Numbered from the stretch's first letter, positions 44,385 to 64,000 are shown. The stretch: 64,000 bases of DNA from Anaerolineales bacterium (GCA_035341015.1 DAOQUL010000007.1:27599-91598); one strand, 5' to 3'. Numbers and translations are program-made. The notes: generated by a model not told the origin, from the sequence alone.

Positions 44385-44897
44385 ATGCCCTTGCAGTGGT
44401 ACGCGCTGCGCAGTAAACCCCGTAAAGAGAACGTGCTCTGGCGTCAAGCCCAAGAGCATGGCTTTGAAGTCTTTTACCCCCGCCTGCGCGTCAACCCGGT
44501 CAACCCTCGTTCCCAAAAGATCAAGCCTTACTTCCCCGGCTACATGTTCGTGCGCGCCGATGTCGAATCTGCCGGCCTTTCCACCTTCCAATGGATGCCG
44601 CATTCCACTGGCCTGGTCTGTTTTGGCGGCGAACCCTCCGTGGTGCCCGAGAACCTCATCCACGCCATCCGCCGCCGGGTCGAAGAGATTGCCCAGGCCG
44701 GGGGCGAGGTGTTCGACGGCTTGAAGCCCGGCGATGTCATCCAGATCAGTTACGGCCCCTTCGAGGGCTACGAAGCAATTTTTGATGCCCGCCTGCCCGG
44801 CAGCGCCCGGGTGCGCGTCTTGTTACAGTTGTTGAGCGAGCGGCGCGTGCCGCTCGAGCTGGATGTCTCGCACATCCAGCAGAAAAAGCGTCCCTGA
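44385..44897 (+). CDS. NusG-paralog transcription antiterminator (RfaH/UpxY/LoaP-like)
   Basis: NGN start WYALRSKPRKE...YFPGYMFV and a KOW-like GDVIQISYGPFEGYEAIF. Positioned at the head of a polysaccharide locus. Confidence 0.8.
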   Translation: MPLQWYALRSKPRKENVLWRQAQEHGFEVFYPRLRVNPVNPRSQKIKPYFPGYMFVRADVESAGLSTFQWMPHSTGLVCFGGEPSVVPENLIHAIRRRVEEIAQAGGEVFDGLKPGDVIQISYGPFEGYEAIFDARLPGSARVRVLLQLLSERRVPLELDVSHIQQKKRP

Positions 44898-45008
44898 TTT
44901 GGCACGGCGAGTGTGAATTTTGGGGCGCGACATAGTTGTTCCTCCTGTCCGATGGCTTGATCCTGTCGGAAGGGCGGAGCACACCCGCTTTCCGAAAGTA
45001 GCCCCTCG

Positions 45009-46193
45009 TTGGATATCCCCATTGCCCAGCGGTCAGCCCCGCACATCTTAAGCAGCCTGTGCCAGGCATTGTTGGCCCGGGCCGGCAGCCCCATCCCGCC
45101 CCTTTGCCCCAAAGACTGGGCTGCCGCCGTGCACCTGGCCCAGGCTGAGCGCGTGGCCCCCCTCCTGTACTGGTCTTGCCAGCAGGCCGGCTGGCCCGCA
45201 GAGTTCCCCGCCGATGCCCGCCAGGAGCTGACCCGGCAGTATTACGCCACCGCCGCCCGCAATGCCCTGCTCTTCCAAGAGCTGGAGCGCATCCTGGCCG
45301 CCTTCTCAGAGACCGCCATCCCCGTCATCGTGCTCAAAGGCGCCGCCCTCGCCACCACCCTTTACCCCAGCATCGGCCTGCGCCCCATGGCTGACCTGGA
45401 CCTGCTGGTCCCACAGGCGGATATGGAAAGGGCGCTGCAGATCGCCAGAGAGCGGCTCGGTTACCGGGAGCCTCGCATGGACGAAGCCCCGCACTTGAAC
45501 CGCCTGGTGGATTATCACGTCCACCTGGTGAGCGGGGCAGCGCAGCCCCTGGTATTGGAACTGCACTGGAACCTGGTCGCCAGCCACGCAAGCTGGTACG
45601 CCGCCCCGGTGGAGTGGTTCTGGCAGCACAGCCAGCCCCTGCCCGCCGCCCCCCAGGCCCGCATGCTGGCCCCCGAGGCCCAACTGCTCTACCTCGCCGC
45701 CCACGCCGTCCTCCAGCACGGCGCCAGCGAGACCCGCCTGCTGTGGATCTACGACATCCACGCCCTGGCCGGCCAGCCCGGCCTGGATTGGGATGGCTTG
45801 CTGGAGCAGGCGCGGGCCTTGCGTTGGTCGGCCGTGCTCCTGCAAGCCTTGAAGCAGGCCCAAGCTTGCTTCGCCACGCCCCTGCCAGGTGGCCTGCTGG
45901 AGCGCCTGGAGGCCCAATCCGAAGCCCGCCTGGCGCGCGTGGTGGCCCTCAAGACCAAATTCCCCCCCGTGCGCCTGCTGTATAACTGGTACACCCTCGC
46001 CGCCCTCAATGGGCCCGCCCGCCTGCGCTTTATCGGCGCGCTGCTCTTCCCCAGCCAGGCTTATATCGCCTGGCGCTACCGCCCGCACCCCGCCTGGACC
46101 TGGCCCCTCTATTACCCCTACCGCTGGGTCATCATGATTTGGGAAAGCCTGCTCACCCTGGGCCAGGGCCTGAAACGCCTCATTACCTCATGA
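45009..46193 (+). CDS. NTP_transf_5-type uncharacterised nucleotidyltransferase-family protein
   Basis: MADLDLLV and LELHWNL motifs. Uncertain TTG start. Its stop overlaps the next ATG (ATGA). Confidence 0.65.
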   Translation: MDIPIAQRSAPHILSSLCQALLARAGSPIPPLCPKDWAAAVHLAQAERVAPLLYWSCQQAGWPAEFPADARQELTRQYYATAARNALLFQELERILAAFSETAIPVIVLKGAALATTLYPSIGLRPMADLDLLVPQADMERALQIARERLGYREPRMDEAPHLNRLVDYHVHLVSGAAQPLVLELHWNLVASHASWYAAPVEWFWQHSQPLPAAPQARMLAPEAQLLYLAAHAVLQHGASETRLLWIYDIHALAGQPGLDWDGLLEQARALRWSAVLLQALKQAQACFATPLPGGLLERLEAQSEARLARVVALKTKFPPVRLLYNWYTLAALNGPARLRFIGALLFPSQAYIAWRYRPHPAWTWPLYYPYRWVIMIWESLLTLGQGLKRLITS

Positions 46194-48043
46194 AACGACT
46201 GATCTGGCTCGAATGGGCCCTGCTCCTGGCTGCCCTGGCCGCCTTCACCATCACCGAGCAGTACCGGCCTTACGTCACGGTCGGGTTGGGGTTGCTGGCG
46301 GCCTCCTTTGGGCTGCGCTGGCTGCGCACTGGCAAATTTGTCCCCCGCTCTGGTCTTGAGCTTTCGGCCATCCTGTTCATCGCCAGCGCCGCCCTCGCCA
46401 CCTGGATCGCCGTGGACCGGCCCACCGCCATGCTGCAAATGGCCCGCATCCTGGCCGCCGCGGCCCTGTTCTACGCCATCGTCAGCCTCGAACGGGCCTG
46501 GCTGCCCTGGCTGGCCGCCGGCCTTGTGGCTGCTGCCGCCTTCCTGGCCCTCTATTGGCCCCTCCAGCATGACTTTGCCGCCGAGACGGCCAAGTTCGCT
46601 TTCATTACCAATCTCGGCCTGTGGCTCAACGCCCATTTCCCCGCCCTCCCCGGCCCATCCATCCATGCCAACGTGGCGGCGGGGACCCTGGCCCTGGCGC
46701 TGCCCTTTGACCTGGCCCTGGCCTGGCAGGCCTGGCAGGCGGGGCGCAAACCCCTGGCCCTGCTGGCCGCCGCTGCCGGCCTGCTCATCGCCGCCGGCCT
46801 GCTAATGACCAGCAGCCGCGGCGCCTGGGTGGGGCTGGCGGGTATGCTGGGATTAGCGCTGATGGCCTGGCTGCAGCGGCGGCGTTTCGCAACTTCGAAG
46901 CGCCAGGCTTTCTTCTGGGGGCTGTCGGCTATCGCCGGGTTGGGCCTGGCGGCTGCCCTGGCCGCCACCGGCTGGCTGGAGCGCCTGCTCGGCCAACTGC
47001 CTGACCCCACCGGCAGCATGACCGGCCGGACGCACCTGTGGCTCCAGGGCCTGCCCCTGATCCGCGATTACCTCTTCACCGGCAGCGGCCTGATGGGCTT
47101 CCGCATCTTGTTTGGCATTTACGGCCTGCTCATCCATTCCCCCTACCAGGATCATTTGCACAACACCTACCTGGAAGTCTGGCTCGAGCAGGGGCTGCTG
47201 GGCTTCATTGGCTTTGCCCTGGGCGCGCTGGTGATTGCCGGGTGGGCCTGGAAAGTCCTCGCCCGCCGCCAGATTTCTATTTGGGGCTGGGCCGGGTTGG
47301 CCGCCCTGGCCGTGGCCGGGCTGCACGGCATCTTCGACGTGGTCTTTTACGTGACGCGCACCTTGCCCCTCATCGGCCTGGTCGGCGGCTTTGCCTGGTG
47401 GCTGCTGGAGCAGGGGCAGGGCCAGCCGGAGGCAAAGCCTACCTTGCGCACCGTCAAGTCTTCTTCGACTGTATGCCTCCTTAAGCTCGCCGCTGCCGGC
47501 GCCCTCCTGCTCCTGGCGCTCATCTTCCACCGCCCTCTGCTCTCCGCCTTCTACGCTAACCTGGGCGCCCTCTCCCAAACCCGCACTGAGATGACCGCCC
47601 TCGGGGTGGATAACTTCGACAACCCCACCTTAGACGAGATCCGCCAACGCAGCGATCTGGGCCAGGCCGAAGCCTATTTCCACCAGGCCCTGCGCTGGAA
47701 CCCGGCCAACCTCACCGCCCTCCAGCGCCTCTCCGCCATCGCCCTCAGCCGGGGGCAGCCTGACCAGGCCCTGGCCTGGATGCAGACTGCCTGGGAGGCC
47801 GGCAGCCGGGAGGAGATCACCCGCCTGCTCCTCGGCGATGCCCTGGCCGCCCTCGGGCAGACCCAATCTGCCGCCGAGACCGTGCGCGGCCTCACCTGGG
47901 CTGAGGGCCGCCTGATGTTCCAGGCCTGGTACCGCTACGAGCGCCAGGGTGATCTTGACCGCGCCGCACTGGCCTGGCAGGCCGTCCTGGCCCTCAACCC
48001 CCACAACCAGCAGGCCCTGGATTGGCTGGCGGCCCATCCTTAG
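46190..48043 (+). CDS. Wzy_C/O-antigen-ligase-family polytopic membrane protein with C-terminal TPR domain
   Basis: About 10-12 TM helices, an MTSSRGAW motif, a large loop, and C-terminal TPR-like repeats (YFHQALRWNPANLTALQRL...). Confidence 0.75.
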   Translation: MKRLIWLEWALLLAALAAFTITEQYRPYVTVGLGLLAASFGLRWLRTGKFVPRSGLELSAILFIASAALATWIAVDRPTAMLQMARILAAAALFYAIVSLERAWLPWLAAGLVAAAAFLALYWPLQHDFAAETAKFAFITNLGLWLNAHFPALPGPSIHANVAAGTLALALPFDLALAWQAWQAGRKPLALLAAAAGLLIAAGLLMTSSRGAWVGLAGMLGLALMAWLQRRRFATSKRQAFFWGLSAIAGLGLAAALAATGWLERLLGQLPDPTGSMTGRTHLWLQGLPLIRDYLFTGSGLMGFRILFGIYGLLIHSPYQDHLHNTYLEVWLEQGLLGFIGFALGALVIAGWAWKVLARRQISIWGWAGLAALAVAGLHGIFDVVFYVTRTLPLIGLVGGFAWWLLEQGQGQPEAKPTLRTVKSSSTVCLLKLAAAGALLLLALIFHRPLLSAFYANLGALSQTRTEMTALGVDNFDNPTLDEIRQRSDLGQAEAYFHQALRWNPANLTALQRLSAIALSRGQPDQALAWMQTAWEAGSREEITRLLLGDALAALGQTQSAAETVRGLTWAEGRLMFQAWYRYERQGDLDRAALAWQAVLALNPHNQQALDWLAAHP

Positions 48044-48076
48044 AACTTATCGCTGTCTCAAACCGATCATTCCTCC

Positions 48077-50899
48077 ATGAAACCCCTCCCTCGTCTTCTT
48101 CTATTCCTCCTTCTCTTTTCCTTTGCCGCGCCATTGGCCCTTGGCCCCGCCCGCGCCCAGTCCTCCGATCCCTTCTGGAGCGAGCCCGCCAACCTCTCCC
48201 AATCCGGCGCCGCCTCCCAGCCCCGCCTGCTGGCCGCCCCCGATGGCCGCCTGCAGGCCTTCTGGTGGGACCGCTTCGACGGCCTGACCAGCGCCCTCTA
48301 CGACGGCAGCGCCTGGGGCGAGCCCTTCGCCGCCCCCCTGCCTGGCACCCAGTCTGCCCCCCAACTCCTGCTCGCCCTCTCCTCTCCCTCTCCCCTCTCC
48401 ACTCCAGCGGAGTGGAGAGGGGCCGGGGGTGAGGTGGGCTCCGGGGGTGAGGTGGGTGAGGTGGGTGATGTAGGCACCGTCCACGCCCTATGGCTGGATG
48501 GCGGCGCCTTGCTGCACAGCACCACCCCCTTCGGCCAGGCCGCCTGGAGCCGCCCCGCCAACCTGGCTGACCCCGCCATGGCTTACCAGGCCGCCCTGGC
48601 CCCCGATGGCGCTCTCTCGGTCGCCTACCTGCGCACCCTCCAGGACGAGACCGCCGCCGCCGGCCTCTATTACCTGCGCTTGCCCGCCGGCCAACTCTCC
48701 TGGACCGCCGCCGTCCCCGTCCACACCTCGCGCTACTACCGCCTGCTCACCGCCGAAACCGCCTACCTCTCCCTGCTCGACCTCTCCTCCCCCCTCTCCA
48801 CCACAACGGAGGGGGTAGGGGCCGGGGGTGAGGTAGGGGCCGCGGTCTTCCTGGCCTGGCACGAGCCCCAGACCGGCGCCGCCCTCTACGCTGCCTCGGC
48901 CGCCAGCGCTGCCTGGAGCGCCCCCCAGCCTCTCAGCGATGACCAGGCCCTGGCCCCCGCCCGCCCCCGCCTGGCCGCCCAGCCGGATGGCGCCCCCCTG
49001 CTCATCTGGCAGGATGCCTCCCGCAGCGCCTGCACCCTGTACCAGCAGGCCTGGTCCCCCACCAGCGGGTCGGATGGCGATTGGGCCGCCCCTGCCCCCA
49101 TCCTGGATGGACTGGCCGCCTGCCCCGCCGCCGGACAGTTCTACAATCAAGGTGGCTTGCTTTACTGGCTCTGGAGCTCGGCCGGTGGCGGCCTGGCCCT
49201 GGCCGCCTGGGACCCTCAGACCAAAGGCTGGTCTGAGGCGCAGACTCTATCCGCCAGCCTCTCCGCCGCCCCCACGGCCGCCGAGAGCCCCCTCTCCGAT
49301 CCCCTCCTGGCCTTCGACGCCTCCTCCGCCGGCCTGCTCTTGCTCGGCCAGGACGAGCAGGGGGATATCTGGTTTGCCCGCAGCTCCGCCGCCGCCCTGC
49401 AATTGGTCTACCCAACCCCCTCCCCCTGGAGCCTTTCCCAGCCCCTCTCAAGCGCCGGCCTGGCCGCCGCCGACCCCGCCCTGGCCCTTGACGACCAGAA
49501 CCGCATCCACGTGGTGTGGAGCGAGGGCCAGCCTGGCGCCCCCGCCTCCCAGATCCTCTACGCCCGCTCCGCCGATGGTCAACCCGGCGCCGACGGGCTG
49601 CCCGTCGCCATCTCCTTCTCCCGCCCTGCTGCCGTGGTCAGCGCGGCGGCCGGTGAAGTGGCCCGCCAGCCCGCCCTGCTGCTGCAAGAGGGCTGGCTGC
49701 ACCTGGCCTGGAGCGGCGGGAGCGAGGGCGAGATCCTTTACAGCCGTGCCGCCCTCGACCAGGCCGCCTCGGCCGCTGCCTGGTCGCCCGCCCAATACAT
49801 TTCCAACGGCCTGCCGGGGGCCTGGCCCCTGCTGGCCGCCGACCAATCTGGCGGGCTCTACCTGCTTTACGTGCTGCCTGCCAACGAAGGGCGCGGTGTG
49901 TACCTGGCCCGCTCGCAAGATGGCGGCAGCACCTGGACGGCCCCTGAGATGGTCTTCGATGCCGGCGCCGCCGGCTGGCGCATGGTGGGGCCGACCGCCC
50001 TGGCCCTGACCCCCTCCCTGCGCCTGGCCGGGCTGACCGAGCTGCACGTGGTCATCACCCGCCAGGCCTTGCCCGGCACCCTGCCCGCCCAGGGCCTGGT
50101 GTACACCCGCGCCGCCCTCTCTGCCGCCTCCCTCCAACCCCTGGCCTGGAGCGAGCCCTTCGAGGCCGCGGCGGCCGCCTACAGTGCCCCGCGCCTGGCC
50201 GCCTCGGCTGGCCGCCTGCACCTGTTCTCGGTGGATGCGGCGGGGGCCTTGTGGCAGCGCAGCCTGCCCCTCGACGCCCCCTTTGAGGACGTGGCCGCCT
50301 GGGGCACCCCGCAGCGGGTGAGTGGCTGGGTGAACCTCAGCGGCTGGGTGAACCTCAGCGGCTGGGATAACCTGACCGGCGGCCTGCCTTACGGCCTGGC
50401 TGCCGCCGGCGGCCTGCTGGATGGCAACCTGTACCTGGCCGGGCCCGCCTACCAGGTTAACACCGACCCGGCCTTCATCCTGCGTTTCAGCGCCTGGCAA
50501 GATGCCCGCTGGACCGCCTCCGAGGCCTACGATCCGATCCATATGCCTGCCGGTGAGGTGCTGGCTGCCGCTGCCGCCGCCCGCCCTGAGGGCGCCCGCC
50601 TGGCCCTGGCCTGGGTCTCTTTGGATGCCGACGGCCTGCCGGCCCTGCGCCTGGCCTGGCGCCCCCTGCCAGAATTCACCCTGCCGCCCCTGCCCACCCC
50701 CCAGCCCACATCCACCCTGCCGCCCCAGCCCACCCTGGCCCCCACGATTGCCCCCAGCCCCACGCCGGACCTGAACCGCACTGCCCCTGCTTCAACCAGC
50801 CTGCCCGACCCGCGCCTGCTGGGCGGCGGCCTGGCGGCCCTGATCGTAGTTGGAGTGATCGTGGTGGTAAGATTGGGCTGGTTCCGCAAGCCGTCTTAA
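48077..50899 (+). CDS. secreted BNR/Asp-box beta-propeller-like surface protein, C-terminally anchored (940 aa)
   Basis: Signal peptide, Asp-box SQDGGSTW, repeated W-S-x-P...h-h-W blade pattern, PTPQPTSTLPPQPT linker, and a TM helix followed by FRKPS at the C-terminus. Confidence 0.7.
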   Translation: MKPLPRLLLFLLLFSFAAPLALGPARAQSSDPFWSEPANLSQSGAASQPRLLAAPDGRLQAFWWDRFDGLTSALYDGSAWGEPFAAPLPGTQSAPQLLLALSSPSPLSTPAEWRGAGGEVGSGGEVGEVGDVGTVHALWLDGGALLHSTTPFGQAAWSRPANLADPAMAYQAALAPDGALSVAYLRTLQDETAAAGLYYLRLPAGQLSWTAAVPVHTSRYYRLLTAETAYLSLLDLSSPLSTTTEGVGAGGEVGAAVFLAWHEPQTGAALYAASAASAAWSAPQPLSDDQALAPARPRLAAQPDGAPLLIWQDASRSACTLYQQAWSPTSGSDGDWAAPAPILDGLAACPAAGQFYNQGGLLYWLWSSAGGGLALAAWDPQTKGWSEAQTLSASLSAAPTAAESPLSDPLLAFDASSAGLLLLGQDEQGDIWFARSSAAALQLVYPTPSPWSLSQPLSSAGLAAADPALALDDQNRIHVVWSEGQPGAPASQILYARSADGQPGADGLPVAISFSRPAAVVSAAAGEVARQPALLLQEGWLHLAWSGGSEGEILYSRAALDQAASAAAWSPAQYISNGLPGAWPLLAADQSGGLYLLYVLPANEGRGVYLARSQDGGSTWTAPEMVFDAGAAGWRMVGPTALALTPSLRLAGLTELHVVITRQALPGTLPAQGLVYTRAALSAASLQPLAWSEPFEAAAAAYSAPRLAASAGRLHLFSVDAAGALWQRSLPLDAPFEDVAAWGTPQRVSGWVNLSGWVNLSGWDNLTGGLPYGLAAAGGLLDGNLYLAGPAYQVNTDPAFILRFSAWQDARWTASEAYDPIHMPAGEVLAAAAAARPEGARLALAWVSLDADGLPALRLAWRPLPEFTLPPLPTPQPTSTLPPQPTLAPTIAPSPTPDLNRTAPASTSLPDPRLLGGGLAALIVVGVIVVVRLGWFRKPS
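48392..48470 (+). repeat. GC-rich palindromic element plus in-frame (GGTGAGGTG)n-type microsatellite inside the BNR gene, copy 1
   Basis: 14-bp perfect stem cccctctccactcc (48392-48405) / ggagtggagagggg (48409-48422), then ccgggggtgaggtggg twice and gtgaggtgg repeats. Translated as PLSTPAEWRGAGGEVGSGGEVGEVGDVG. Confidence 0.8.
48791..48839 (+). repeat. degenerate second copy of the same element inside the BNR gene
   Basis: cccctctccaccacaacggagggggtaggggccgggggtgaggtagggg aligns with copy 1. The stem is imperfect. Translated as PLSTTTEGVGAGGEVG. Confidence 0.7.
50324..50377 (+). repeat. 18-nt coding tandem repeat, about 3 units
   Basis: ggctgggtgaacctcagc twice, then the degenerate unit ggctgggataacctgacc. 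Encodes GWVNLSGWVNLSGWDNLT. Confidence 0.85.
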
Positions 50900-51054
50900 A
50901 AAAGGAACGACTCAAACGACGAGGAACGACTGCGGCGGGGAAGGGCGAAAAACTTTTGGGGCGGGGACTCTATACATAGGATAGCAGAATTTTTGGGCGG
51001 CACAAGAGGAAATTGGACGGATGCAGTCCGCCCCTACAGATTTTATAGGAAACT

Positions 51055-51222
51055 ATGGCAGAAGAACTCTCTACCCAACACCAAGTCATCATCGAGCCCT
51101 CGCGCGGCTGGCTGGACCTGCAGTTGCGCGCCCTGTGGCAGTACCGCGATCTGCTGGGCTTTTTGGTGTGGCGCGCCGTGAAGGTGCGTTATGAATCACA
51201 GCAAAAAGGTTTGGAGGTTTGA
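51055..51222 (+). pseudogene. wzm: 5' stump of a high-GC Wzm-type ABC-2 polysaccharide-export permease gene
   Basis: Hand-translated 55-codon ORF MAEELSTQHQVIIEPSRGWLDLQLRALWQYRDLLGFLVWRAVKVRYESQQKGLEV*. YRDLLGFLVWRAVKVRY aligns with YRELIINWAIRDIRSRY of the intact wzm 100 nt downstream. Similarity and high GC both end near 51190. Confidence 0.65.
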
Positions 51223-51297
51223 GTATGGACCTTGATGTGGCCGGGATGTTAAAGTCAGAATATTTTAGGCGAATTGATAGCTCAAGATTTCAAAACT

Positions 51298-52116
51298 ATG
51301 GATAAACAACTTTCAATAGGTCAAAAGAACACACTTGTACAAAAGGTGAAAATACTTGTCCATTATCGGGAATTAATCATAAATTGGGCCATACGTGATA
51401 TTCGTTCTCGCTATCGCCAGTCTTTTATGGGCATGGGATGGCTATTAATCCAGCCTGTCTTTCAAATAATTATCGTTAGCGTGATTTTTGGCTATTTTAT
51501 CAAAGTGCCCAGTGAGGGAATGCCTTACCCAATTTTTTATTTTGCTGCCATGATGCCTTGGATGCTATTCCAGGGGATGATTTCTAGCGCCGTGCCAAGC
51601 GTGCTTAATAACATGGCTTTGGTTAGTAAAATCTATTTTCCTCGCGAAATTCTTCCTCTGGCTTCTATTCTGGCACGTTTTTTTGATTTTCTGATTTCAT
51701 TGGGTATTTATTTTGTTCTAATGATGGTATATAAGGTTCCATTGCAAATTACGTTGGTTCTAATTCCTGTTTTGCTAATATTACAAACAATTTTAGCCCT
51801 GGGAATAAGTCTCCTGGGCGCTGCCGTTAGCGTCTTTGTCCGGGATATTTCGTTTGCAATCCCTTTAGTGATGCAACTCTGGATGTATGCCACGCCAGTG
51901 ATCTATCCACTCGATCTGGTGCCAGAACAATGGCGTTGGCTTTACCTGCTCAATCCAATGGCGGGTGTTATCGACTCTTACCGGCGGATACTACTGTATG
52001 GCGAATGGCCAGACTTGATTTATCTGGCAAGTGCTGCATTCACATCATTGGTATTATGCCTGTTTGGTTACTGGTATTTTAAGAAACTCGAAATTACTAT
52101 GGCGGATGTACTGTGA
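51298..52116 (+). CDS. wzm: ABC-2 type polysaccharide-export permease
   Basis: Six hydrophobic segments and an N-terminal YRELIINWAIRDIRSRYRQSFMGMGWLLIQP motif. ATG at 51298 (TTG at 51274 also open). Confidence 0.85.
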   Translation: MDKQLSIGQKNTLVQKVKILVHYRELIINWAIRDIRSRYRQSFMGMGWLLIQPVFQIIIVSVIFGYFIKVPSEGMPYPIFYFAAMMPWMLFQGMISSAVPSVLNNMALVSKIYFPREILPLASILARFFDFLISLGIYFVLMMVYKVPLQITLVLIPVLLILQTILALGISLLGAAVSVFVRDISFAIPLVMQLWMYATPVIYPLDLVPEQWRWLYLLNPMAGVIDSYRRILLYGEWPDLIYLASAAFTSLVLCLFGYWYFKKLEITMADVL

Positions 52117-53363
52117 TGAATACCCAGCCCAGTATTGTTTTTGAGAAAGTTTCGAAGCGTTACTACATTGGCAAGCGGCATGTATTTGCCCAGCAATTGT
52201 TGCCTGAATTTATCCAACGCAGACTGGCCCAACGTTCCACTGTTGATGAATTGTGGGCATTGCAAGATGTATCATTAGAAGTTCACCCCGGTGAGGCGCT
52301 TGGGCTAATCGGTTCGAACGGTTCGGGCAAAACTACTACCCTTTCTATCTTGGCAGGCATCACGGCTGTCACACATGGGAGCGTGGCGGTGAGCGGCCGC
52401 GTTGGAGCGCTGATTCAACTCGGTGCAGGTTTCCATCCTGAACTAACTGGGCGCGAAAATATTTACCTCAATGCATCGATCTTGGGTCTGAAACGTGCTG
52501 AAGTCGATCGAATCTATGATGAGATTGTTGAATTTGCTGAACTAGAGAAGTTTATGGATACTCCGGTAAAGCGTTATTCTTCTGGCATGTATGCTCGTCT
52601 GGGATTCAGCGTAGCAATCCATATCAAGCCTGATATCTTGTTGGTAGACGAGGTATTGAGCGTTGGGGATATGAACTTTCAGAGTAAATGTCAACAGCGC
52701 ATGCGCAAGATGATGAGTGACAGGATAGCGGTTGTTTTCGTCTCTCACAATTTGCCTTCTGTTCAAGGCTTATGTGATAGGGTGGTTTGGCTTGATAGAG
52801 GCAAAATACGCGCATCAGGTAAAACCTCTGACGTTGTTGCGCAATACATGGATGCAATGAATGATCGGGCCCTCTCCACGCGCAATTCTGATTATTTTGG
52901 CACCCGCTGGGGTTCTGGAGATGTTACTTTAACAAAAGTTGATTTGATCGATCAAAACAATCAAATAACTAAAAAACTGAACTATCGCGATACAGCAACT
53001 GTCAGAATCGAATATCAGATTAACAAGTCGCTTCCAGGGGTTATATTTCGTCTCTGGATACAAGATGTTACTACAGGTGTAATCGTTACCTCGGCCGATT
53101 CAATCCGCGGTGAGAAGATTGGCGATTTTGGAAAACGAGGTGTGGTTGAATTTATTTTCCCAAATCTTCCCCTGAGACCGAGAAATTATTCTTTGTCGGT
53201 GGTTGCTGTCAGTACAGACTTATTGATACCCTATGATCGCTGGGGAAGTGTAATTACTTTCACTGTGTCTTCCAGCAACATCGAACGCGAAAGTGGCTAT
53301 GTTCATGGACAGCAAGACTTGGTCGAGATTCCCTACCAAGTTAGGACTTACCGATGTGATTGA
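52113..53363 (+). CDS. wzt: polysaccharide-export ABC ATPase with C-terminal glycan-binding (Wzt_C-like) domain
   Basis: Walker A GSNGSGKTT, signature YSSGMYARL, Walker B ILLVDEVLS. A ~165-aa beta-rich C-terminal extension. Overlaps wzm by 4 nt. Confidence 0.85.
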   Translation: MMNTQPSIVFEKVSKRYYIGKRHVFAQQLLPEFIQRRLAQRSTVDELWALQDVSLEVHPGEALGLIGSNGSGKTTTLSILAGITAVTHGSVAVSGRVGALIQLGAGFHPELTGRENIYLNASILGLKRAEVDRIYDEIVEFAELEKFMDTPVKRYSSGMYARLGFSVAIHIKPDILLVDEVLSVGDMNFQSKCQQRMRKMMSDRIAVVFVSHNLPSVQGLCDRVVWLDRGKIRASGKTSDVVAQYMDAMNDRALSTRNSDYFGTRWGSGDVTLTKVDLIDQNNQITKKLNYRDTATVRIEYQINKSLPGVIFRLWIQDVTTGVIVTSADSIRGEKIGDFGKRGVVEFIFPNLPLRPRNYSLSVVAVSTDLLIPYDRWGSVITFTVSSSNIERESGYVHGQQDLVEIPYQVRTYRCD

Positions 53364-53455
53364 GCAGCTAAAAAAGACAAGTATGATCGGATGGAAATAT
53401 TAGTGTTAGCGATAACAACTTTCCTTCCCACTATAATTTTTGAGGTAATTTTGTG

Positions 53456-54385
53456 ATGGATGAATTATTTGACAACGTAACGTACTACGGAATTAACAAA
53501 ATTATTCGGAATTATTGTCATTTTCCATCATCTTTACCTCTACCCGTATCAATTCAACATGGCTGGAGTTTTGTGCCATCCCTTCATGATGCTAGGGTAG
53601 GTGCATCTGAAAACTGGTATTGGTCTGATGCCATGGCAAAGGCTTACAAAGCTAAGTATCCTGAAATAAAAACACGGGCTGTAGGAGCACCATTCTTATA
53701 TTTTTTAAAAGTTATCTCTTATGAAGTTATGCCTGAAGAAACTAGAAAAGGATCGATTGTTTTTCCTTCGCACTCTTCTAGTTTAGCAAGAATATCTTGC
53801 GATTACAATCAGTATGCTGAAATGCTCTCTTATTTACCAGATATATATAAACCGGTCACGATTTGTATGTATCATATCGACTTTGAAAGAGGAATGGGAT
53901 CACCATTTGCCTCCAGAGGTTTTAAAATTGTAAGCAATGGTGATAGTTTGTATGAAGAAAATTTTCTTCTTAATTTCGTGAACAACTCGAGAGATAAGCT
54001 TTATGCTTTTTCCAACCAAATGACTTCGGCATTGCTTTTTGCATCTGCTATGGACCTTAAAGCATTTTATTACGGACCGCCTTTTCAGTTTGATAGTCAG
54101 GACCCCAATTTTACCAATATAGCAGACTATGATCAACGCTATAAGCAGTGGGAGATAAATAGTTCGAATTATTTCCAATTCCCTGACGTTAACATTTTGG
54201 ATCAACAGAAATTCTCTAGAGAAACATTAGGCGAAGAAAATCTTCTTTCGCCAATTGAAATGTTTTTCCTTTTATCAAAATTGGCTGTTAAAAAACAATA
54301 CCTCAGACAGGTATTACCCGATGATCACCTTGCCAAGAAAGTGTTCCGATTAATTAAACGAGCACTGATAAAAATCCTTGGGTAG
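53456..54385 (+). CDS. hypothetical protein (309 aa), low-GC island
   Basis: Intact ORF with a GAGG RBS. No motif recognised. Sits between wzt and the first glycosyltransferase. Confidence 0.55.
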   Translation: MDELFDNVTYYGINKIIRNYCHFPSSLPLPVSIQHGWSFVPSLHDARVGASENWYWSDAMAKAYKAKYPEIKTRAVGAPFLYFLKVISYEVMPEETRKGSIVFPSHSSSLARISCDYNQYAEMLSYLPDIYKPVTICMYHIDFERGMGSPFASRGFKIVSNGDSLYEENFLLNFVNNSRDKLYAFSNQMTSALLFASAMDLKAFYYGPPFQFDSQDPNFTNIADYDQRYKQWEINSSNYFQFPDVNILDQQKFSRETLGEENLLSPIEMFFLLSKLAVKKQYLRQVLPDDHLAKKVFRLIKRALIKILG

Positions 54386-54523
54386 CCATACCTTTGCCAA
54401 AAACAGACTGAGTTGGGATGTTTTTTTGTAGCGAAGTTGTGTCGCCTCCCATTCGGCAGAAATAAGGTGGCATAGGTGAATGTTAAGGTGGTTGACCAGG
54501 CAGTGCCAAGATCTAACTTCTAG

Positions 54524-55885
54524 ATGAAAATATTGCAAATAAATACATCTGATATATCTGGCGGTGCAGAGAGAGTTGCCTGGAATCTTCACAACGCTTA
54601 TCAATTGCATGAACATTGTTCTTGGTTGGTTGTGGGTAATAAGCGTTCTGCCGATCCTCTGGTATTTGAAATCTCGCGTTCACATCCACCAAAAATTTGG
54701 TCGCGTATATGTTGGGCTGTACATGGCAGTTTAGAGTATTATGAAAATCGCTTTAGCCTGGCACGTTGGCTGAGGTACTGCTTGAAAGTATTAGCTCAAG
54801 GGGTCCCAGGCATGGAGCGTGAGGTGGGTTGTGAAGATTTTTTTTATCCGGGTAGTCATAGGTTGTTAGCGCAGTTACCCGAAAAGCCCGATTTGATCCA
54901 TGCCCACAATTTACATGGCGGGTATTTCGACTTGCGTTACCTGGCCCATTTGAGCCAGCGCATTCCCACAATGGTTACACTGCATGATCAGTGGCTGCTA
55001 ACCGGCCACTGTGCATACTCGCTTGGTTGCACGCGTTGGAAAGTGGGGTGCGGGCGCTGCCCTGATTTATCTTTATATCCTTCATTAAATCGTGATGGCA
55101 CCGCACAAAACTGGCGGCGAAAGCAAGCGATATACCGTCGGAGTAAGTTGTATGTAGCTACCCCCAGCCAATGGTTGATGGATTGTGTGCAGCAATCCAT
55201 GTTAAATCCGGTAGAAAGCCGGGTAATCCCGAACGGGGTGGATCAGGCGATCTTTCATCCTGGAGATAAAGTGGCGGCCCGCCGCCGGCTAAACTTGCCG
55301 GAGAATGCAGCCATCTTGCTCAGCCTTGCAGCCGGTGGGCGGAATAACCCTTATAAAGATTATGGCACGATACTTCAGGCGTTTGCCAGTCTTCCTAGAG
55401 TAGATCATCTCAAATATCCCCTGGTTTTGCTTCAGGTTGGCGGAGATGAACAGCGGATGGAGGATTTGGGCGACCGCATGATTTATCACTGGCCTTATCA
55501 AAAAGAAGCCCAGCAGTTAGCGCTTATCTACAGCGCATCCGATTTGTTTTTACATGCCGCACGAGCAGATACTTTCCCAACAACAATTTTAGAGGCTTTT
55601 TCCTGTGGCATTCCAGTTGTTGCAACCGCGGTTGGCGGTATCCCTGAGCAGGTAAAAGATGGACATAATGGATTTCTTGTTTCGCCAGGTAATGTTCAAG
55701 AAATGAGCAAGAAAATCGATCAATTGCTCACTGTCTCTGATTTGATGCTGCAAATGGGACAGTTTGCTTTGCGTGATGCTAGAGAGCGATTTGATCTTCG
55801 TCAGCAGGTGAAAGAATATTTAAGCTGGTATCAGGAGATTATTGCTCAACGGCAAGCCTCACAGGCTATTGGAAGAAGAATGTGA
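54524..55885 (+). CDS. family-4 (GT-B) glycosyltransferase
   Basis: C-terminal EAFSCGIPVVATAVGGIPEQV (E-x7-E type) motif and an N-terminal SGGAERV region. Confidence 0.85.
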   Translation: MKILQINTSDISGGAERVAWNLHNAYQLHEHCSWLVVGNKRSADPLVFEISRSHPPKIWSRICWAVHGSLEYYENRFSLARWLRYCLKVLAQGVPGMEREVGCEDFFYPGSHRLLAQLPEKPDLIHAHNLHGGYFDLRYLAHLSQRIPTMVTLHDQWLLTGHCAYSLGCTRWKVGCGRCPDLSLYPSLNRDGTAQNWRRKQAIYRRSKLYVATPSQWLMDCVQQSMLNPVESRVIPNGVDQAIFHPGDKVAARRRLNLPENAAILLSLAAGGRNNPYKDYGTILQAFASLPRVDHLKYPLVLLQVGGDEQRMEDLGDRMIYHWPYQKEAQQLALIYSASDLFLHAARADTFPTTILEAFSCGIPVVATAVGGIPEQVKDGHNGFLVSPGNVQEMSKKIDQLLTVSDLMLQMGQFALRDARERFDLRQQVKEYLSWYQEIIAQRQASQAIGRRM

Positions 55886-57315
55886 TGAAATCATTTGATA
55901 TGAGGCTGCGTGTGATTATTGGCGTGTGTTCTATTGTGGGAATAATTTTTGGCGCTTTTCCTGCAAAAAGCATGCTGGCTTTTGGCTGGTCGGCTCCTCT
56001 TTCTTTGTCGGGTTCAAATCCGGCCTGGTTTCCAAAGATGGTCGCAGATAAGGCGGGATATGTTCACGTAATGTGGGGAGAGTGGGTTGGCTCGGGCTTG
56101 CCTTCTGTGCAAGCGGCTAATACGATATTTTACCGGTACTGGGATGGATTCAATTGGTCCGAGCCTATTGACACTTTTGCTTCCTCTACTACCATTTATC
56201 TTGATGATCTCGAGGTAACTGAAGATGGTCAGCTTGTTGCGGCGTGGGGAGATGATTTATATTTTTACTTAAGCTATGTATCGATTGGTGATGCAGCGCG
56301 TGTAACTGCTTGGAAAACCACAAAATATTTACCAGATACCTCGGTAGTCAATGCTAAAATTGCAATTTCTCCAGTGAACAATCGTATTTATCTTTCTTAT
56401 GGGGCTCTTAATAAAATTTTTCTGACCTCAACTTTGGATGGATTGACTTGGGAACCGGTTCAAACGATTTGGACTTCGACAAATTCTAGTATAGCAGTAA
56501 CCAACGGGGATATTATGGTTAACGAAGATGGGCGCGTGAAGCTCTCTTTCACAGAAAATAGCGTAGGAAAGTCTTGGGGGGGAGCGGCAATTTGGTATAC
56601 AGATTTTGATCCGTTAACTGGTAATACACAGATGCGCGAGATTTTGCGGTTAGACAGCCCATCAAGCCCTACGCTGGGATGGCCCAGGCTGGCATCTAAT
56701 CAGATGGGCCAGGAGATGATGTTTTGGAATAATGGTGTTGGCAGCTTAACGGGACGTTTTTTCCAAATATCCGATGATGATGGGCAGAATTGGGGAACGG
56801 TGCGAAATGCCTTCGTAGGCGAATTGAGCGGACAAACAGGCTTTCCTGCCCTGGCGGCGGATAGCTTGGGGCGTTTTCATCTTATCACTTCTGCGCAAAC
56901 CCCTTCTGGCATTACTCAATTGTGTTATGCGGTTTGGGATGGAAGAGAGTGGTCCAGTTATACCCCGCTTTGGCCTGAGCTGCGCGGCGAACATCCGGCT
57001 CTGGTGGTAACAGGGGGTAATCTTTTGCATGTGGTCTGGAATTCTTATGCAGATGCCAGTATTCGGTATAGCTCCTTGTTGTTAGATACCCCATATTTAC
57101 CCCCTGGTTCTTATCAATCGCCTTCCGTTCTGGAAATTACATCAACCCCACCGCCAATGACAGCATCGCCTACTCCAACGCCGTTGCTTCTACTTTCAGA
57201 TTCGGCCCCAGTAATCTTGGGGGCCGAAGCGCAAATGGCGATTTTGTTGTGGGGAGGTTTGCCAGTCGTTGTTCTGATTGGTATTTTGATGATTGCCTAC
57301 CTCAGAAAAAGATAA
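55885..57315 (+). CDS. BNR/Asp-box beta-propeller-like surface protein, C-terminally anchored (476 aa)
   Basis: N-terminal hydrophobic signal; Asp-boxes STLDGLTW and SDDDGQNW. The N-terminal WSAPLSLSGS...YVHVMWGEW aligns with WSEPANLSQS...LQAFWWDR of the 940-aa protein. TPPPMTASPTPTP linker, TM helix and LRKR tail. Confidence 0.7.
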   Translation: MKSFDMRLRVIIGVCSIVGIIFGAFPAKSMLAFGWSAPLSLSGSNPAWFPKMVADKAGYVHVMWGEWVGSGLPSVQAANTIFYRYWDGFNWSEPIDTFASSTTIYLDDLEVTEDGQLVAAWGDDLYFYLSYVSIGDAARVTAWKTTKYLPDTSVVNAKIAISPVNNRIYLSYGALNKIFLTSTLDGLTWEPVQTIWTSTNSSIAVTNGDIMVNEDGRVKLSFTENSVGKSWGGAAIWYTDFDPLTGNTQMREILRLDSPSSPTLGWPRLASNQMGQEMMFWNNGVGSLTGRFFQISDDDGQNWGTVRNAFVGELSGQTGFPALAADSLGRFHLITSAQTPSGITQLCYAVWDGREWSSYTPLWPELRGEHPALVVTGGNLLHVVWNSYADASIRYSSLLLDTPYLPPGSYQSPSVLEITSTPPPMTASPTPTPLLLLSDSAPVILGAEAQMAILLWGGLPVVVLIGILMIAYLRKR

Positions 57316-58466
57316 TGTCAACCTTGCCGCTGGTTACAGTAATTACCCCCTCCTATCAACAGGTTGAATATATCGAGCGTACGATTCAGAGTGTTTTGGG
57401 GCAGGAGTATCCCAACTTAGAATATTGGGTTATCGATGGTGGGTCGACAGATGGAACTGTTGATATCCTAAAACGTTATGATGGGCGACTCAATTGGGTT
57501 TCTGAGGCCGATCGAGGGCAATCAGATGCTCTGAATAAAGGTTTTAGACGAGCCAGGGGAGCAATCCTTGGTTGGTTAAATGCAGATGACACCTATAATC
57601 CGGAGGCTATTCGGCAGGCTGTTGCTGCGATGGAAGAATATCCTGATGTTGGCATGGTGTATAGTCACTGTAACTTCATTGATATTTGTGACAATGTTGT
57701 GTTTCGCCAGGTAGCTCCAGCATTTAGCCTTGCGCGGGAGGTTCTTGATCATAATCTCCCTCAGCCAACAGCTTTTTATCGTTCCGATGTTCTTAGAACG
57801 GTGGGTTATCTTAATCCTGAATTGCATTTTGTAATGGATTGGGATCTTTTTTTGCGAATCGGTGTGCAATTCCCGATTCAGCAAGTTGATGCAGTATGGG
57901 CAAACTTTCGTGAGGTAAACGGTACGAAAACATGCTCGCACCCAGAAAAATTTTGGGATGAGATGGTTGGGGTGTTCGAGAGTTTCTTCTCTATCTCCGA
58001 ATTGCCCGCGGAAGTGCGAGGTTTGCGGGAGCAGGCTTTAGCGCGAGTTCATTGGGCAGCTGGTGTGATATATCAGTTGGATTCTGATTTTACAACCAGA
58101 CTCCTGGGTCAACAAAGTTGTCAAAAGGCACTAGATCTCTACCCTTTGTTGGAACAAGATTATCAGTTTGCATCTGCTCAGATTGTGGATTGGGCTGTGC
58201 GTAGATTGCCGTTAGCTGAACGCAAGGCGTTTGTGGATACTATTTTTTCGTCTTTATCTATAACTGATTCTGTTCGCAGGAGTATGGTACGGCAGATTTC
58301 TGGAAACGTATTTGCCAGCAGCGTGCTCATGCAGGGAGACTATCGGTATAATTTACCTGTTTTTTCTTATCGCCAGACTCTTTGCCTGGTTTTTCAAGCG
58401 GTTCGACAAGATTTTCGTTGGATATTTAACCGGGGCATTTTATCTCGATTATTGCGTTGTTCATAG
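57315..58466 (+). CDS. family-2 glycosyltransferase
   Basis: VTVITPSYQQ, VIDGGSTDGT and NADD motifs. The ATG overlaps the upstream stop (TAATG). Confidence 0.85.
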   Translation: MSTLPLVTVITPSYQQVEYIERTIQSVLGQEYPNLEYWVIDGGSTDGTVDILKRYDGRLNWVSEADRGQSDALNKGFRRARGAILGWLNADDTYNPEAIRQAVAAMEEYPDVGMVYSHCNFIDICDNVVFRQVAPAFSLAREVLDHNLPQPTAFYRSDVLRTVGYLNPELHFVMDWDLFLRIGVQFPIQQVDAVWANFREVNGTKTCSHPEKFWDEMVGVFESFFSISELPAEVRGLREQALARVHWAAGVIYQLDSDFTTRLLGQQSCQKALDLYPLLEQDYQFASAQIVDWAVRRLPLAERKAFVDTIFSSLSITDSVRRSMVRQISGNVFASSVLMQGDYRYNLPVFSYRQTLCLVFQAVRQDFRWIFNRGILSRLLRCS

Positions 58467-58495
58467 TCCTCAGTGGTTCAATAATGTATTTAGAG

Positions 58496-59701
58496 ATGGC
58501 CAATATACTCGTCAGTGTTGTAATCCCATGTTATAACCAGGGGCATTTTGCTCTGAGAGCAATTCAATCGGTTTTAGATCAAGGGTTGGATGAGTGTGAG
58601 ATAATTCTTATTGACGATGGTTCCCAGGATGATACGGGTGAATTGCTTGGTAGTATTACAGACTCCCGTTTGCGGTATCATTACCAACCTAACCAGGGCT
58701 TGGCAGCGGCACGTAACAAGGGTTTGCATCTCGCCAAGGGGGAATTTATCGTTTTTTTGGATGCAGATGACGAGCTTGCCCCCTCATTTTTTGCAAAAAC
58801 ATTGCCTGTACTCCGATCAAATTCCGAGTGGGCTGGTGTATATACTCTAAGTGTTTATATTGATCCTGACGAAAAGATTTTGCCGGGGCCGGTTGTTGGC
58901 AGAATTGTTCCGCCCGATCAACTATATTCTGAATTGCTCCAGGGCGGTTTTCTCCCCATTATGGCGGCAGTGGTTAAGCGCAAAGCGGTTCTATCTATTC
59001 GTGGGTTTGAAAGTTCATTATCGGGAACAGCCGATTGGGATTATTGGCTACGCCTGGCGAAGGAGAATTTGCTTGTCGGGATTCCCGAGCCCCTGGCGTA
59101 TTACCGGGTTTATCCAGGGAGTATGTCTACCAATGCAGAATTAATGAATAGAGACCGATTACAGGTATTGAAGAAGCATTTTGGCACTCCAGATGATCAT
59201 CCATCTAGCTGGTCTGATCAAAAGCGAGTGGCGTATGCTATGGGGTACCGCGCCAATGCTTTAGCTTTGATGGAGCAGGGCAATTTCTTCCAGGCTTATA
59301 GCTGGGTGCGAAAAGCGCTCCTAATAAAGCCAGAAATTTTCACTCGGTTAGATACATATTATGAATTAGCTTGTTGTCGTCAATCTAAAGGACAGCGTGG
59401 AAGGGCTGAACTGTTAGATTTTGCTCAATCAGAATTAGATGTTCTAGGGGTTCTTGAAGTAATTGAGCGTTCTGATGCGGGGGAGAATTTTAAACGCCAA
59501 GCTGCATCCAGGGCGTACCAAGCCCTGGGATCATTAGCTGACGTGTCGGGAGAGTGGGCATTGGCAAGAAAGTATTTCAGCCGGTCAGTTTTCTTTATGC
59601 CAACTATAATCCTAGAGCCCGGTTTTTTGCGCCGGTATTTCAAGCTATTTCTTGGAAAACGAGTGGTAGAACGCTTGCGAAAAGGTATTCTGTCGGGCTA
59701 G
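58496..59701 (+). CDS. family-2 glycosyltransferase with helical-repeat C-terminal domain
   Basis: VSVVIPCYNQ, LIDDGSQD and LDADD motifs. The C-terminal ~180 aa are TPR-like. Start could also be 58484. Confidence 0.8.
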   Translation: MANILVSVVIPCYNQGHFALRAIQSVLDQGLDECEIILIDDGSQDDTGELLGSITDSRLRYHYQPNQGLAAARNKGLHLAKGEFIVFLDADDELAPSFFAKTLPVLRSNSEWAGVYTLSVYIDPDEKILPGPVVGRIVPPDQLYSELLQGGFLPIMAAVVKRKAVLSIRGFESSLSGTADWDYWLRLAKENLLVGIPEPLAYYRVYPGSMSTNAELMNRDRLQVLKKHFGTPDDHPSSWSDQKRVAYAMGYRANALALMEQGNFFQAYSWVRKALLIKPEIFTRLDTYYELACCRQSKGQRGRAELLDFAQSELDVLGVLEVIERSDAGENFKRQAASRAYQALGSLADVSGEWALARKYFSRSVFFMPTIILEPGFLRRYFKLFLGKRVVERLRKGILSG

Positions 59702-59706
59702 TAAAA

Positions 59707-60648
59707 ATGGAGCTATCTGTAGTTATCGTTAACTATAATGCTGGCCCAGCGCTAGCAAAATGTTTATCCTGTCTGATGAGCCAGACCTTGCAGGATATTG
59801 AAATAATTGTGGTGGATAACAATTCTCAAGACGGTTCTTTGGCTATATTGGATGATTATCCTCGGGTTTCCATAATACGAAATATGGCCAATCTTGGTTT
59901 TGCTGCAGGGCAAAACCAGGGTTTCCGATTGGCCCGTGGTCAATACATCATGGCTTTGAATTATGATCTGTACATGCCTCCCCAATTTTTGGAAAGTCTA
60001 TTAATCGGATTAAAGTCGGACAATCAAGCTGGATGGGCTTGTGGAAAGTTGCTAAATATGAGTCCAGATGGGAAAATGGAGAAAACAATTTATGCCGTTG
60101 GTCATACATTGCCATTGAACAGGTTTCCAAAACTGCGTGGTAACGGTGATGTTGATTGTGGACAGTATGATCAGCGGGAATATGTATTCGGCGCTCCGGG
60201 GGCGGCAGTCATATATCGTAGGGAATTTATAGATCACATTTCGTTCGACGATCAGTTCTTTGATGAAAGTTTTTTTACCTGGTATGAAGATGTAGATGTT
60301 GATTGGCGAGGAAATAACTGCGGCTGGAAATGTATTTATATTCCAGATGCACAGGCTTACCACCAGGGCCATGTAGGAGAACGCTATGTCGACCCCTTTT
60401 TATCCTTTTTTGTTGAATTGACAGTGCGTAATCGTTGGTTAATGGTTTTGGCCAATGAACTTGAGTTGAAACATAATTTTTCATTAAGCATCATGCAATA
60501 TGAATTTGCTTTGTTGCGGTATGTGCTAAGAGAAAGACTATTAAAAGCTTACGTGCGAGCGATATACGGGGTGTACACGCGAGTCGCATTGATCCAGCAT
60601 AAAAGGAAATCTATTTTAAAAAAATCATTAGAGAAGGGTTGCTTTTGA
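59707..60648 (+). CDS. family-2 glycosyltransferase
   Basis: SVVIVNYNAG and VVDNNSQDGS motifs. ATG at 59707, 5 nt after the upstream stop. Confidence 0.85.
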   Translation: MELSVVIVNYNAGPALAKCLSCLMSQTLQDIEIIVVDNNSQDGSLAILDDYPRVSIIRNMANLGFAAGQNQGFRLARGQYIMALNYDLYMPPQFLESLLIGLKSDNQAGWACGKLLNMSPDGKMEKTIYAVGHTLPLNRFPKLRGNGDVDCGQYDQREYVFGAPGAAVIYRREFIDHISFDDQFFDESFFTWYEDVDVDWRGNNCGWKCIYIPDAQAYHQGHVGERYVDPFLSFFVELTVRNRWLMVLANELELKHNFSLSIMQYEFALLRYVLRERLLKAYVRAIYGVYTRVALIQHKRKSILKKSLEKGCF

Positions 60649-60698
60649 ATACTAGACGTTTAACCTTGTGTTTTTCTTGTGAATGATCTGAAAACATA

Positions 60699-61661: not shown

Positions 61662-61666
61662 GGAAT

Positions 61667-62656: not shown

Positions 62657-62668
62657 GATTAACATTGC

Positions 62669-63577: not shown

Positions 63578-63999
63578 TGATGTCTGTGAACGGTAAGGCC
63601 ATGCGCATAGGGATTGATATTCGAGCAATTTCACACCCCCAGCCTGGAGGATTTAAAAGTTATACTTCTGGATTGGTGAGTGGTTTGGCTTCGGTGGATC
63701 ATGAAGATCAGTTTGTTCTCTACGCAGATCGTTCTTGCCAACTGCCATCTATAGCAGATCGCCTTAATTTTTCAATCGTTACGCTAAAGTCGCCAGAACA
63801 TTTAATGGGAATGGGGGCGATGGTTCGTGAGCAGGTATTTTTACCTCGGGCGGCTTGGCAAGAGGATTTTGATATATTTCATTTTCCTTGTGCAACCGGT
63901 CCGCTCTTGTTTCCTCGTACAAAGGTGGTTACGATCCATGACGCCATTGAGTTTATCGAAAAGCCACCATTGTTTGTGAATCGTAGTATCAGGCGGTGG
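63577..63999 (+). CDS. family-4 glycosyltransferase, N-terminal part (3' end beyond window)
   Basis: Hand-translated open frame MMSVNGKAMRIGIDIRAIS...FDIFHFPCATGP...VVTIHDAIEF, a typical GT4 N-domain. The ATG overlaps the upstream TGA. Alternative start at 63601. Confidence 0.7.
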   Translation, partial: MMSVNGKAMRIGIDIRAISHPQPGGFKSYTSGLVSGLASVDHEDQFVLYADRSCQLPSIADRLNFSIVTLKSPEHLMGMGAMVREQVFLPRAAWQEDFDIFHFPCATGPLLFPRTKVVTIHDAIEFIEKPPLFVNRSIRRW

Positions 64000-64000
64000 T

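Follow-up and report, generated by a model that had tools for sequence, protein, structure and literature searches.

It is well established that, where polysaccharide gene clusters have been exchanged, remnants of genes can be left at the junctions. Such remnants are among the anomalies reported for 178 E. coli serogroup clusters, where an anomaly usually reflects a relatively recent event (Liu et al. 2019, PMC7685785). At O-antigen and capsule junctions of the Enterobacteriaceae (E. coli, Salmonella and Shigella), a truncated cluster gene lies at the edge of the exchanged block, and the variable genes of the O-antigen clusters have an atypical, usually lower, GC content; both traits recur in the locus described here, which was found in a stretch of 64,000 nucleotides (the window) from an Anaerolineales bacterium. 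The enterobacterial clusters are exchanged at conserved housekeeping flanks such as galF and gnd, whereas the exchange point here is internal, after a 5' module, and the host is an uncultured Anaerolineae-type member of the Chloroflexota rather than a proteobacterium. The wzm/wzt LPS clusters of Xanthomonas also have a GC content below that of the genome, and only wzm and wzt, at low identity, are common to their very different cassettes (PMC2585010). In Xanthomonas the whole cluster between fixed flanks varies and insertion sequences (IS) lie at the junctions (PMC2585010), in contrast to the truncated exporter gene without an IS that we find here. A further parallel is provided by the RfaH/ops, Bacteroides UpxY and LoaP operons, in which, as in this locus, a specialised NusG paralogue comes first in a long, single-strand polysaccharide locus of lineage-variable content; here, however, no ops-like element was matched above chance, and a comparable role for the paralogue is suggested by its position alone. 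The mechanism thus adds nothing new to what is known of O-antigen and capsule loci; the novelty lies in the host lineage and in an architecture that places the exchange point within the locus, behind a conserved 5' module headed by a NusG paralogue.

The best explanation of our data, and one that we consider probable, is that a low-GC cassette was joined to codon 46 of a resident wzm, the remainder of which was replaced. The remnant of that gene is base-level evidence of cassette replacement at a surface-glycan locus in the Chloroflexota (Anaerolineae), a group in which the polymers of the envelope, and how they vary, have received almost no study. The remnant is contained in an open reading frame (ORF) of 55 codons on the + strand (51055-51222; ATG at 51055, TGA at 51220-51222) with the product MAEELSTQHQVIIEPSRGWLDLQLRALWQYRDLLGFLVWRAVKVRYESQQKGLEV. 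Codons 1-46 (51055-51192), delimited by phmmer matches and by identity to the wzm of a related contig (L009), are those of the resident Wzm and encode MAEELSTQHQVIIEPSRGWLDLQLRALWQYRDLLGFLVWRAVKVRY; they end with the Tyr of a conserved 'RY' (codon 46, TAT, 51190-51192). The nine codons that follow, ESQQKGLEV, and the TGA (51193-51222) are out of context and are read from the incoming low-GC DNA. The initial annotation, made from the sequence alone, had read a 55-codon frame from 51055 that runs nine codons past RY to a stop at 51220-51222, and all of these coordinates are confirmed.

The same annotation had called the peptide a typical Wzm N-terminus, a reading to be abandoned if the peptide showed no similarity to the N-termini of ABC-2 permeases. 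A phmmer search of 1.84 billion representatives returned 1589 matches at E<=1e-3 library-wide, the best with an E of 5.5e-12 and 57-71% identity over stump residues ~10-50. Aligned with these matches, the stump always falls at the N-terminus of its homologues, and six of the ten longer matches tested passed the Pfam cut-off for PF01061, so that the similarity is indeed to the N-termini of PF01061 proteins. The consensus of the homologues at the stump is IEPSRGWxxLxLRDLWEYRELLYFLVWRDVKVRYKQTVLG, and the stump is significantly similar to family members over the N-terminal interface helix of Wzm/ABC-2 permeases, the helix that carries the W-R-D/E-x-K-x-R-Y pattern. Judged by sequence, it is a genuine N-terminal piece of such a permease, with a likeness far above chance. 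It does not have the full ABC2_membrane domain or the six transmembrane helices of the family, since only 46 homologous codons are present compared to ~256-285 in full-length relatives; it is a remnant of the Wzm family rather than a member, and a pseudogene fragment rather than a transporter. Searches of Pfam, NCBIfam and PDB with the stump alone gave no match, as expected for models that begin past this region or for so short a query. In a word-indexed protein search the stump matched nothing but itself, such that the exhaustive phmmer search was needed.

The full-length wzm product of another relative, L019, matches the Wzm of Aquifex aeolicus (6m96, 6oih; E ~3e-19) and TarG (6jbh), and its segment LLYFLVWRDVKVRY aligns with Aquifex Wzm residues 5-18. 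Mapped through L019, the stump covers about the same residues, 5-18, and ends at about residue 18. We take this segment to be the N-terminal interface helix preceding TM1, so that the stump stops short of any transmembrane helix and, encoding the interface helix only, is unable to form a transporter. In common with Aquifex Wzm-Wzt (6m96, 6oih) and TarGH (6jbh), the L019 gene and the incoming gene encode ABC-2 permeases with a Wzt_C ATPase, whereas the stump has neither transmembrane helices nor a partner ATPase of its own. Residues at and after the motif were counted in the 140 of the top 149 phmmer matches that show it. KQT follows RY in 113 of the 140, compared to ESQ in the stump, and position 41, which is Ala in the stump, is D in 125, E in 11, N in three, G in one and never Ala. 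Replacement of this nearly invariant D/E by A41 would fit, if weakly, with relaxed constraint.

The loss of homology and the change in composition coincide, placing the recombination breakpoint at 51189-51193. The stump is 66% identical over 44 aa to the product of the syntenic wzm of L009, and nucleotide identity to that gene is 78% before 51192 and 26%, the random level, after it. A two-segment maximum-likelihood fit over 51085-51420 places the GC change point at 51189 (2-log-unit support interval 51178-51194), where GC drops from 0.67 to 0.37, and the collapse of GC right after RY, as first described, is therefore real. Codons 1-46 have a GC content of 0.61 (GC3 0.78), the nine-codon tail 0.40 and the downstream wzm 0.41. 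A truncated gene of the locus is thus found exactly at a break in both composition and homology, as expected of a gene remnant. A low-GC spacer of 75 nt (51223-51297; GC 0.39), the 5' flank of the incoming gene, leads to the complete low-GC wzm at 51298, again as annotated.

Such a break could also be a chimeric link at 51190 between two genomes of a metagenome, and the bacterium comes from anaerobic-digester-type metagenomes. Contigs from other samples break in the high-GC block with overlaps of ~130 nt to their neighbours, the signature of assembly-graph branch points, and the comparison available is one of assemblies at contig level, with several of the samples possibly from one study. The join is nonetheless 100% identical (571/571 nt) in four further contigs (JGI 3300025861, 3300009690 and 3300025859, and Logan SRR5007133), which are also identical over their whole lengths, were produced by different pipelines (JGI, Logan) and each carry the join well inside. 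The exact 55-aa product is recorded on nine contigs. Contigs from JGI 3300010356 and from ENA ERZ27257434 and ERZ27257442 match the window without a difference in the interior of the cassette and continue into the right flank, and two contigs of ~96 kb run from the backbone through the right flank. There is, moreover, no common sequence at the join to mislead an assembler, and both sides make up one functional locus on one strand. Since the join is identical across independent assemblies, a one-off chimera is very unlikely, and we regard an assembly artefact as a very improbable source of the junction. The ends and ~130-nt overlaps of the other-sample contigs lie at about 45555, 48835-48964 and 50665-50794; these branch points may result from different strain versions of the locus occurring together, or from DNA of 72-76% GC being poorly covered.

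The left neighbour of the stump is a gene for a secreted, anchored, BNR-like protein of 940 aa (48077-50899, +; weak BNR_2 match), homologues of which are 28-47% identical. Relatives of the locus were collected by scanning genome and metagenome collections with this protein, and a second set was collected via the NusG paralogue. The scans with the 940-aa protein returned homologues of 28-37% identity on MAGs and metagenome contigs of Anaerolineae/Chloroflexota. A full-length wzm of the stump type lies 60-440 nt after the 940-aa homologue in L009, L017, L019 and L021, that is, in all of the closer loci with downstream sequence. These relatives are distant: their 940-aa proteins are 35-37% (L009, L017 and L019) or 30% (L021) identical to that of the window, and the closest syntenic wzm, in L009, has a 940-aa neighbour of 35% identity. 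A comparison with related strains, proposed earlier as a way to recover the intact gene, shows what stands at this place in relatives but yields no intact allele at high identity, none of the relatives in these scans exceeding 37%. The contigs of the sister strains (L036-L041) all end earlier than the stump, that of L036 at window-equivalent 50819. In L012 and L024 the genes downstream of the 940-aa homologue include homologues of the right-flank genes, which indicates that the two flanks are parts of one type of locus.

Of the old gene, nothing else was recovered. In a tblastn search of 68.7 kb with a full-length stump-type Wzm, the stump and the new wzm were the sole matches; five-sixths of the old wzm, on the 3' side, has been lost, and the event was therefore a replacement or deletion rather than a simple insertion. 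The earlier proposal that an export gene had been cut and the locus behind it swapped is borne out in this respect, by the stump at the break, the full wzm at this place in relatives and the missing 3' part; that the lost gene was native is not. Simple insertion into wzm is ruled out, given that no 3' half of the gene exists within the 68.7 kb, as is an in-register homologous crossover within wzm, from which a chimeric wzm would be expected instead of a stump, a spacer and a complete wzm. Signatures of an integrase- or IS-mobilised genomic island were also looked for, and none was found: the two junctions have no repeat of at least 10 nt in common, the window contains no tRNA, and no cassette ORF of at least 120 aa matched the mobility gene families (integrase, IS, transposase).

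The window comprises three composition regimes: a backbone (1-44 kb) with a GC content of 0.573 +/- 0.026 (34 ORFs, including the housekeeping genes for GAPDH, PGK and TIM), a high-GC block that ends in the stump (45009-51192), and the region from 51193 to 64000, with a GC content of 0.36-0.47 (z -3.8 to -8 against the backbone). The first full gene of the low-GC region is the complete wzm (51298-52116, +; 272 aa, GC 0.41, z=-6.2), which matches PF01061 with an E of 4.2e-17 over profile positions 8-210 of 211 and encodes the homologous motif HYRELIINWAIRDIRSRY. With a full ABC2_membrane domain and an adjoining wzt ATPase gene, it qualifies as a Wzm/ABC-2 permease. BLASTP of the stump against this Wzm gave an E of 0.12 and about 26% identity over the short region that can be aligned, a degree of divergence reminiscent of the Xanthomonas exporters. 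The start of wzt (52113-53363, +; 416 aa; PF00005 6.5e-20, PF14524 Wzt_C 6.2e-19) overlaps the stop of wzm. The remainder of the cassette in the window (53453-64000, +) encodes a 310-aa protein, a GT4, a 477-aa protein, six GT2 and part of another GT4, so that the contents in all are wzm, wzt with Wzt_C, two GT4, six GT2 and two genes without assigned function.

The right-hand junction, the location of which had been left to a comparison with related strains, lies beyond the window on contig L005, which adds 4.7 kb (L005 position x = window x+52668). Here one more low-GC GT4 is followed by a Wzy_C ORF of 471 aa and by two GT4 with a GC content of 0.63-0.65. GC3 rises from 0.40 to above 0.8 across composite positions 64758-65030, inside the Wzy_C ORF, and the transition is gradual, over ~270 nt, with no sharp break. 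The low-GC block is thus ~13.6-13.8 kb long, ends ~0.8-1.0 kb past the window and has higher-GC glycan genes on both sides. Further to the right, at L005 15668-16032 (composite about 68336-68700), an ORF of 78 aa whose N-terminus resembles a zinc ribbon breaks off abruptly, with DNA of lower GC behind it. The ends of three contigs, from different assemblies, fall within 40 nt of each other at this point, which probably represents a repeat or another strain-variable junction at the right-hand edge of the locus.

Where the cassette came from is a separate matter. A search of the island genes for a donor, also proposed at the outset, produced none: with Wzt, no non-self relative exceeded 51% identity, the named relatives at or below this value range from Caldilineaceae and other Chloroflexi to Bacillaceae, and the two genomic contexts of Wzt relatives that were inspected are unrelated loci. 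The description of the block as an imported cassette holds insofar as it carries its own wzm and wzt and is set apart in composition; the word foreign, which draws on composition and stands beside a best Wzt relative of 51% identity, is not supported as written. Variable glycan genes commonly fall below the GC content of the genome that carries them, as documented for Xanthomonas (PMC2585010) and E. coli (PMC7685785), and a low-GC donor genome is therefore not required. Two cassette genes deserve separate mention. The 310-aa ORF directly after wzt (53453-54385) has the lowest GC content of the locus, 0.36, and no match in Pfam or NCBIfam; given the Wzt_C domain of Wzt, one could speculate that it is a candidate chain-terminating or capping enzyme. 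The 477-aa protein (55882-57315) is distantly paralogous, at 24-27% identity, to the C-terminal half of the 940-aa BNR-like family, and the cassette therefore supplies its own version of that domain.

The block to the left of the breakpoint is itself atypical. Between 45009 and 51192 the GC content is 0.68-0.73 (z +4 to +6), which makes it as deviant as the low-GC block, whereas the homologous modules of relatives do not differ in GC content from the DNA around them; the locus is accordingly a mosaic of several layers and not native DNA with one island. The initial annotation had equated high GC with native, an equation that a block 4 to 6 standard deviations above the backbone makes doubtful. 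Because the block was already present before a sister strain of 98.3% identity diverged, we prefer to call it resident, an earlier layer of a mosaic locus whose native status is doubtful. It starts with an NTP_transf_5 gene (45009-46193, +; PF14907 E 1e-56; GC 0.68, z=+4.2), kept after the NusG paralogue in L036 and L044, and continues with a gene for an O-antigen ligase/polymerase-like Wzy_C membrane protein with TPR (46139-48043, +; PF04932 E 2.5e-20) and the 940-aa gene; the last two form a pair that is widely conserved in many Anaerolineae-like contigs.

The first gene of the glycan locus is the NusG paralogue (44385-44897, +), and from 44385 to the end of the window all genes are on the + strand. 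The initial annotation had described an upstream NusG paralogue promoter region as retained and as a possible driver of the newcomer; the paralogue is 6.2 kb and three genes upstream, and not adjacent to the stump. It is RfaH/UpxY-like (TIGR01955, RfaH, E 5e-22; UpxY, 4.9e-14; PF02357), with scores below the NCBIfam cut-offs for the RfaH, UpxY and LoaP families, and it has the NGN + KOW architecture and the position at the 5' end of a polysaccharide operon that are expected of such proteins. PF02357 is present in all relatives of the paralogue. A search for the ops-like element GGCGGTAGNNTG with at most one mismatch gave six matches compared to 4.0 expected, none of them on the + strand in the locus, although a lineage-specific element would escape such a search. 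The paralogue is 70-99% identical in more than 100 Anaerolineales contigs, always after TIM and a 245-aa membrane protein. What comes next is completely different from lineage to lineage: the window and L044 have a glycan locus, L043 has LPG_synthase and WecG, and L047 has LMWPc and a sigma factor.

In the sister strain L036, nucleotide identity is 98.3% through the backbone, NTP_transf_5 and Wzy_C-TPR, up to 48032. With the related species L043, whose NusG paralogue is 95% identical, homology ends at 44911 and entirely different genes follow. L044, also a related species, with 81% identity in the NusG paralogue and 47% in the 940-aa protein, has the order NusG paralogue, NTP_transf_5, Wzy_C-TPR, an 868-aa BNR-like protein, AsnB, wzm, wzt and methyltransferase; immediately behind the 868-aa gene its GC content drops from 0.56 to 0.45, and its wzm is not of the stump type and is 40% identical to the new wzm of the window. 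Together, these comparisons indicate that the region behind the NusG paralogue is lineage-variable and that the point after the 940-aa gene is one at which gene content and composition switch. It is conceivable, though we hold the idea only tentatively, that this point is a recurrent swap site for ABC-transporter glycan cassettes of Anaerolineales behind a NusG-led module, in a form of serotype switching by digester Chloroflexota of which the stump would be the first direct scar; in the same scheme, the stump and a small ORF described below might couple translation. The outline that emerges is of a conserved, NusG-led 5' module with a swappable transporter/glycosyltransferase cassette, and switching of surface glycans is likely relevant to phage and predator pressure in digester communities.

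The history that we propose starts from a locus in which the NusG paralogue was followed by the conserved 5' module (NTP_transf_5, Wzy_C-TPR and the 940-aa BNR-like gene) and then by a wzm of the type kept at this place in relatives. Illegitimate recombination would have joined the low-GC cassette of ~13.6 kb to codon 46 of this resident wzm, with deletion of the rest of the gene and presumably of its wzt and glycosyltransferase genes; the right end of the exchange would lie in or just before the Wzy-like gene. What was left would be a pseudogene stump of 46 codons that runs nine codons into the new DNA before it stops, and export would now be carried out by the incoming Wzm/Wzt, possibly with a change in the glycan made.

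Given the atypical composition of the stump-bearing block, which of the two blocks arrived last has to be weighed. The low-GC cassette could be the older, with the high-GC left block, or only the 940-aa gene and the wzm fragment, as later arrivals bearing a wzm already cut at its end, or the whole mosaic, with the stump, could have formed in another Anaerolineae lineage and been imported in one piece. This polarity would account for a left block 4 to 6 standard deviations above the backbone when the same genes of relatives match their flanks. It would also fit the 940-aa gene, which is a mosaic relative to L036 (13600-16594), with 58-98% nucleotide identity in 150-nt windows between strains otherwise 98.3% identical, pointing to recent recombination immediately left of the stump, and the interruption of between-strain homology at 48032. 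On the other hand, NTP_transf_5 and Wzy_C-TPR are as similar between the sister strains as the backbone is (98.3%), which dates most of the high-GC block to before the strains diverged. In addition, higher-GC glycan genes lie on both sides of the cassette and homologues of both flanks co-occur in L012, for which one insertion into an uninterrupted locus is more parsimonious than two flanking ones. We thus regard a reversed or multi-step order as unlikely and infer that the low-GC cassette was the last to arrive. Within the 940-aa gene, identity to L036 is 94-98% in parts and 58-77% around 49750-50500, a pattern that suggests recombination or diversifying selection.

Incoming wzm and wzt would probably be transcribed by read-through from the conserved 5' module. 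Prediction in the 155-nt intergenic region upstream of the stump (50900-51054) found no sigma-70-like promoter on the + strand near the stump and no + strand terminator; because the genes share one strand and no terminator is predicted on it, read-through from the upstream genes into the new wzm is plausible.

The junction contains a further open frame (51195-51305; ATGGATAA), which extends to a TAA at 51303-51305 and so overlaps the ATG of the new wzm at 51298. The TGA that bounds it on the left (51192-51194) is a product of the join, and the frame holds an ATG at 51225, 2 nt past the stop of the stump, with GGAGG ahead of it at 51213-51217. It has no Pfam match and could be the 3' stub of a gene upstream in the donor, a small coupling ORF or a chance occurrence.

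This arrangement bears on the question of whether the 55-aa ORF is itself a functional small gene, such as one for a leader or regulatory peptide or a relay for translational coupling into the new wzm, instead of an inert remnant. It retains its start codon and an unbroken frame through 46 codons, its stop (51220-51222) is followed after 2 nt by the ATG at 51225 with the preceding GGAGG, and the frame from that ATG ends in the TAA that overlaps the wzm start. Against this, the peptide represents only the interface helix of a six-helix permease, and its nearly invariant acidic residue (D125/E11/N3/G1 in the homologues) has become Ala. An open frame of 37 codons is not unusual in DNA of 40% GC, and all copies of the ORF are identical, so that conservation is uninformative. 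A functional role for the ORF is, in our view, extremely improbable, and we retain the reading of a pseudogene stump.

Two palindromic elements of ~55-60 nt, 82% identical to each other, lie in frame inside the 940-aa ORF (48387-48446 and 48786-48845) and recall in-frame palindromic elements such as the RPEs of Rickettsia. Both are insertions, of 21 and 15 aa, when the 940-aa protein is aligned with its three nearest homologues. Rfam searches gave only sub-threshold 'miRNA' matches, which are the hairpins of the palindromic repeat, and the hairpin of the first element (48387-48446) has a predicted energy of -46.5 kcal/mol. A different palindrome is present in the intergenic region between the Wzy_C-TPR and 940-aa genes of sister strains, at the breaks of their contigs.
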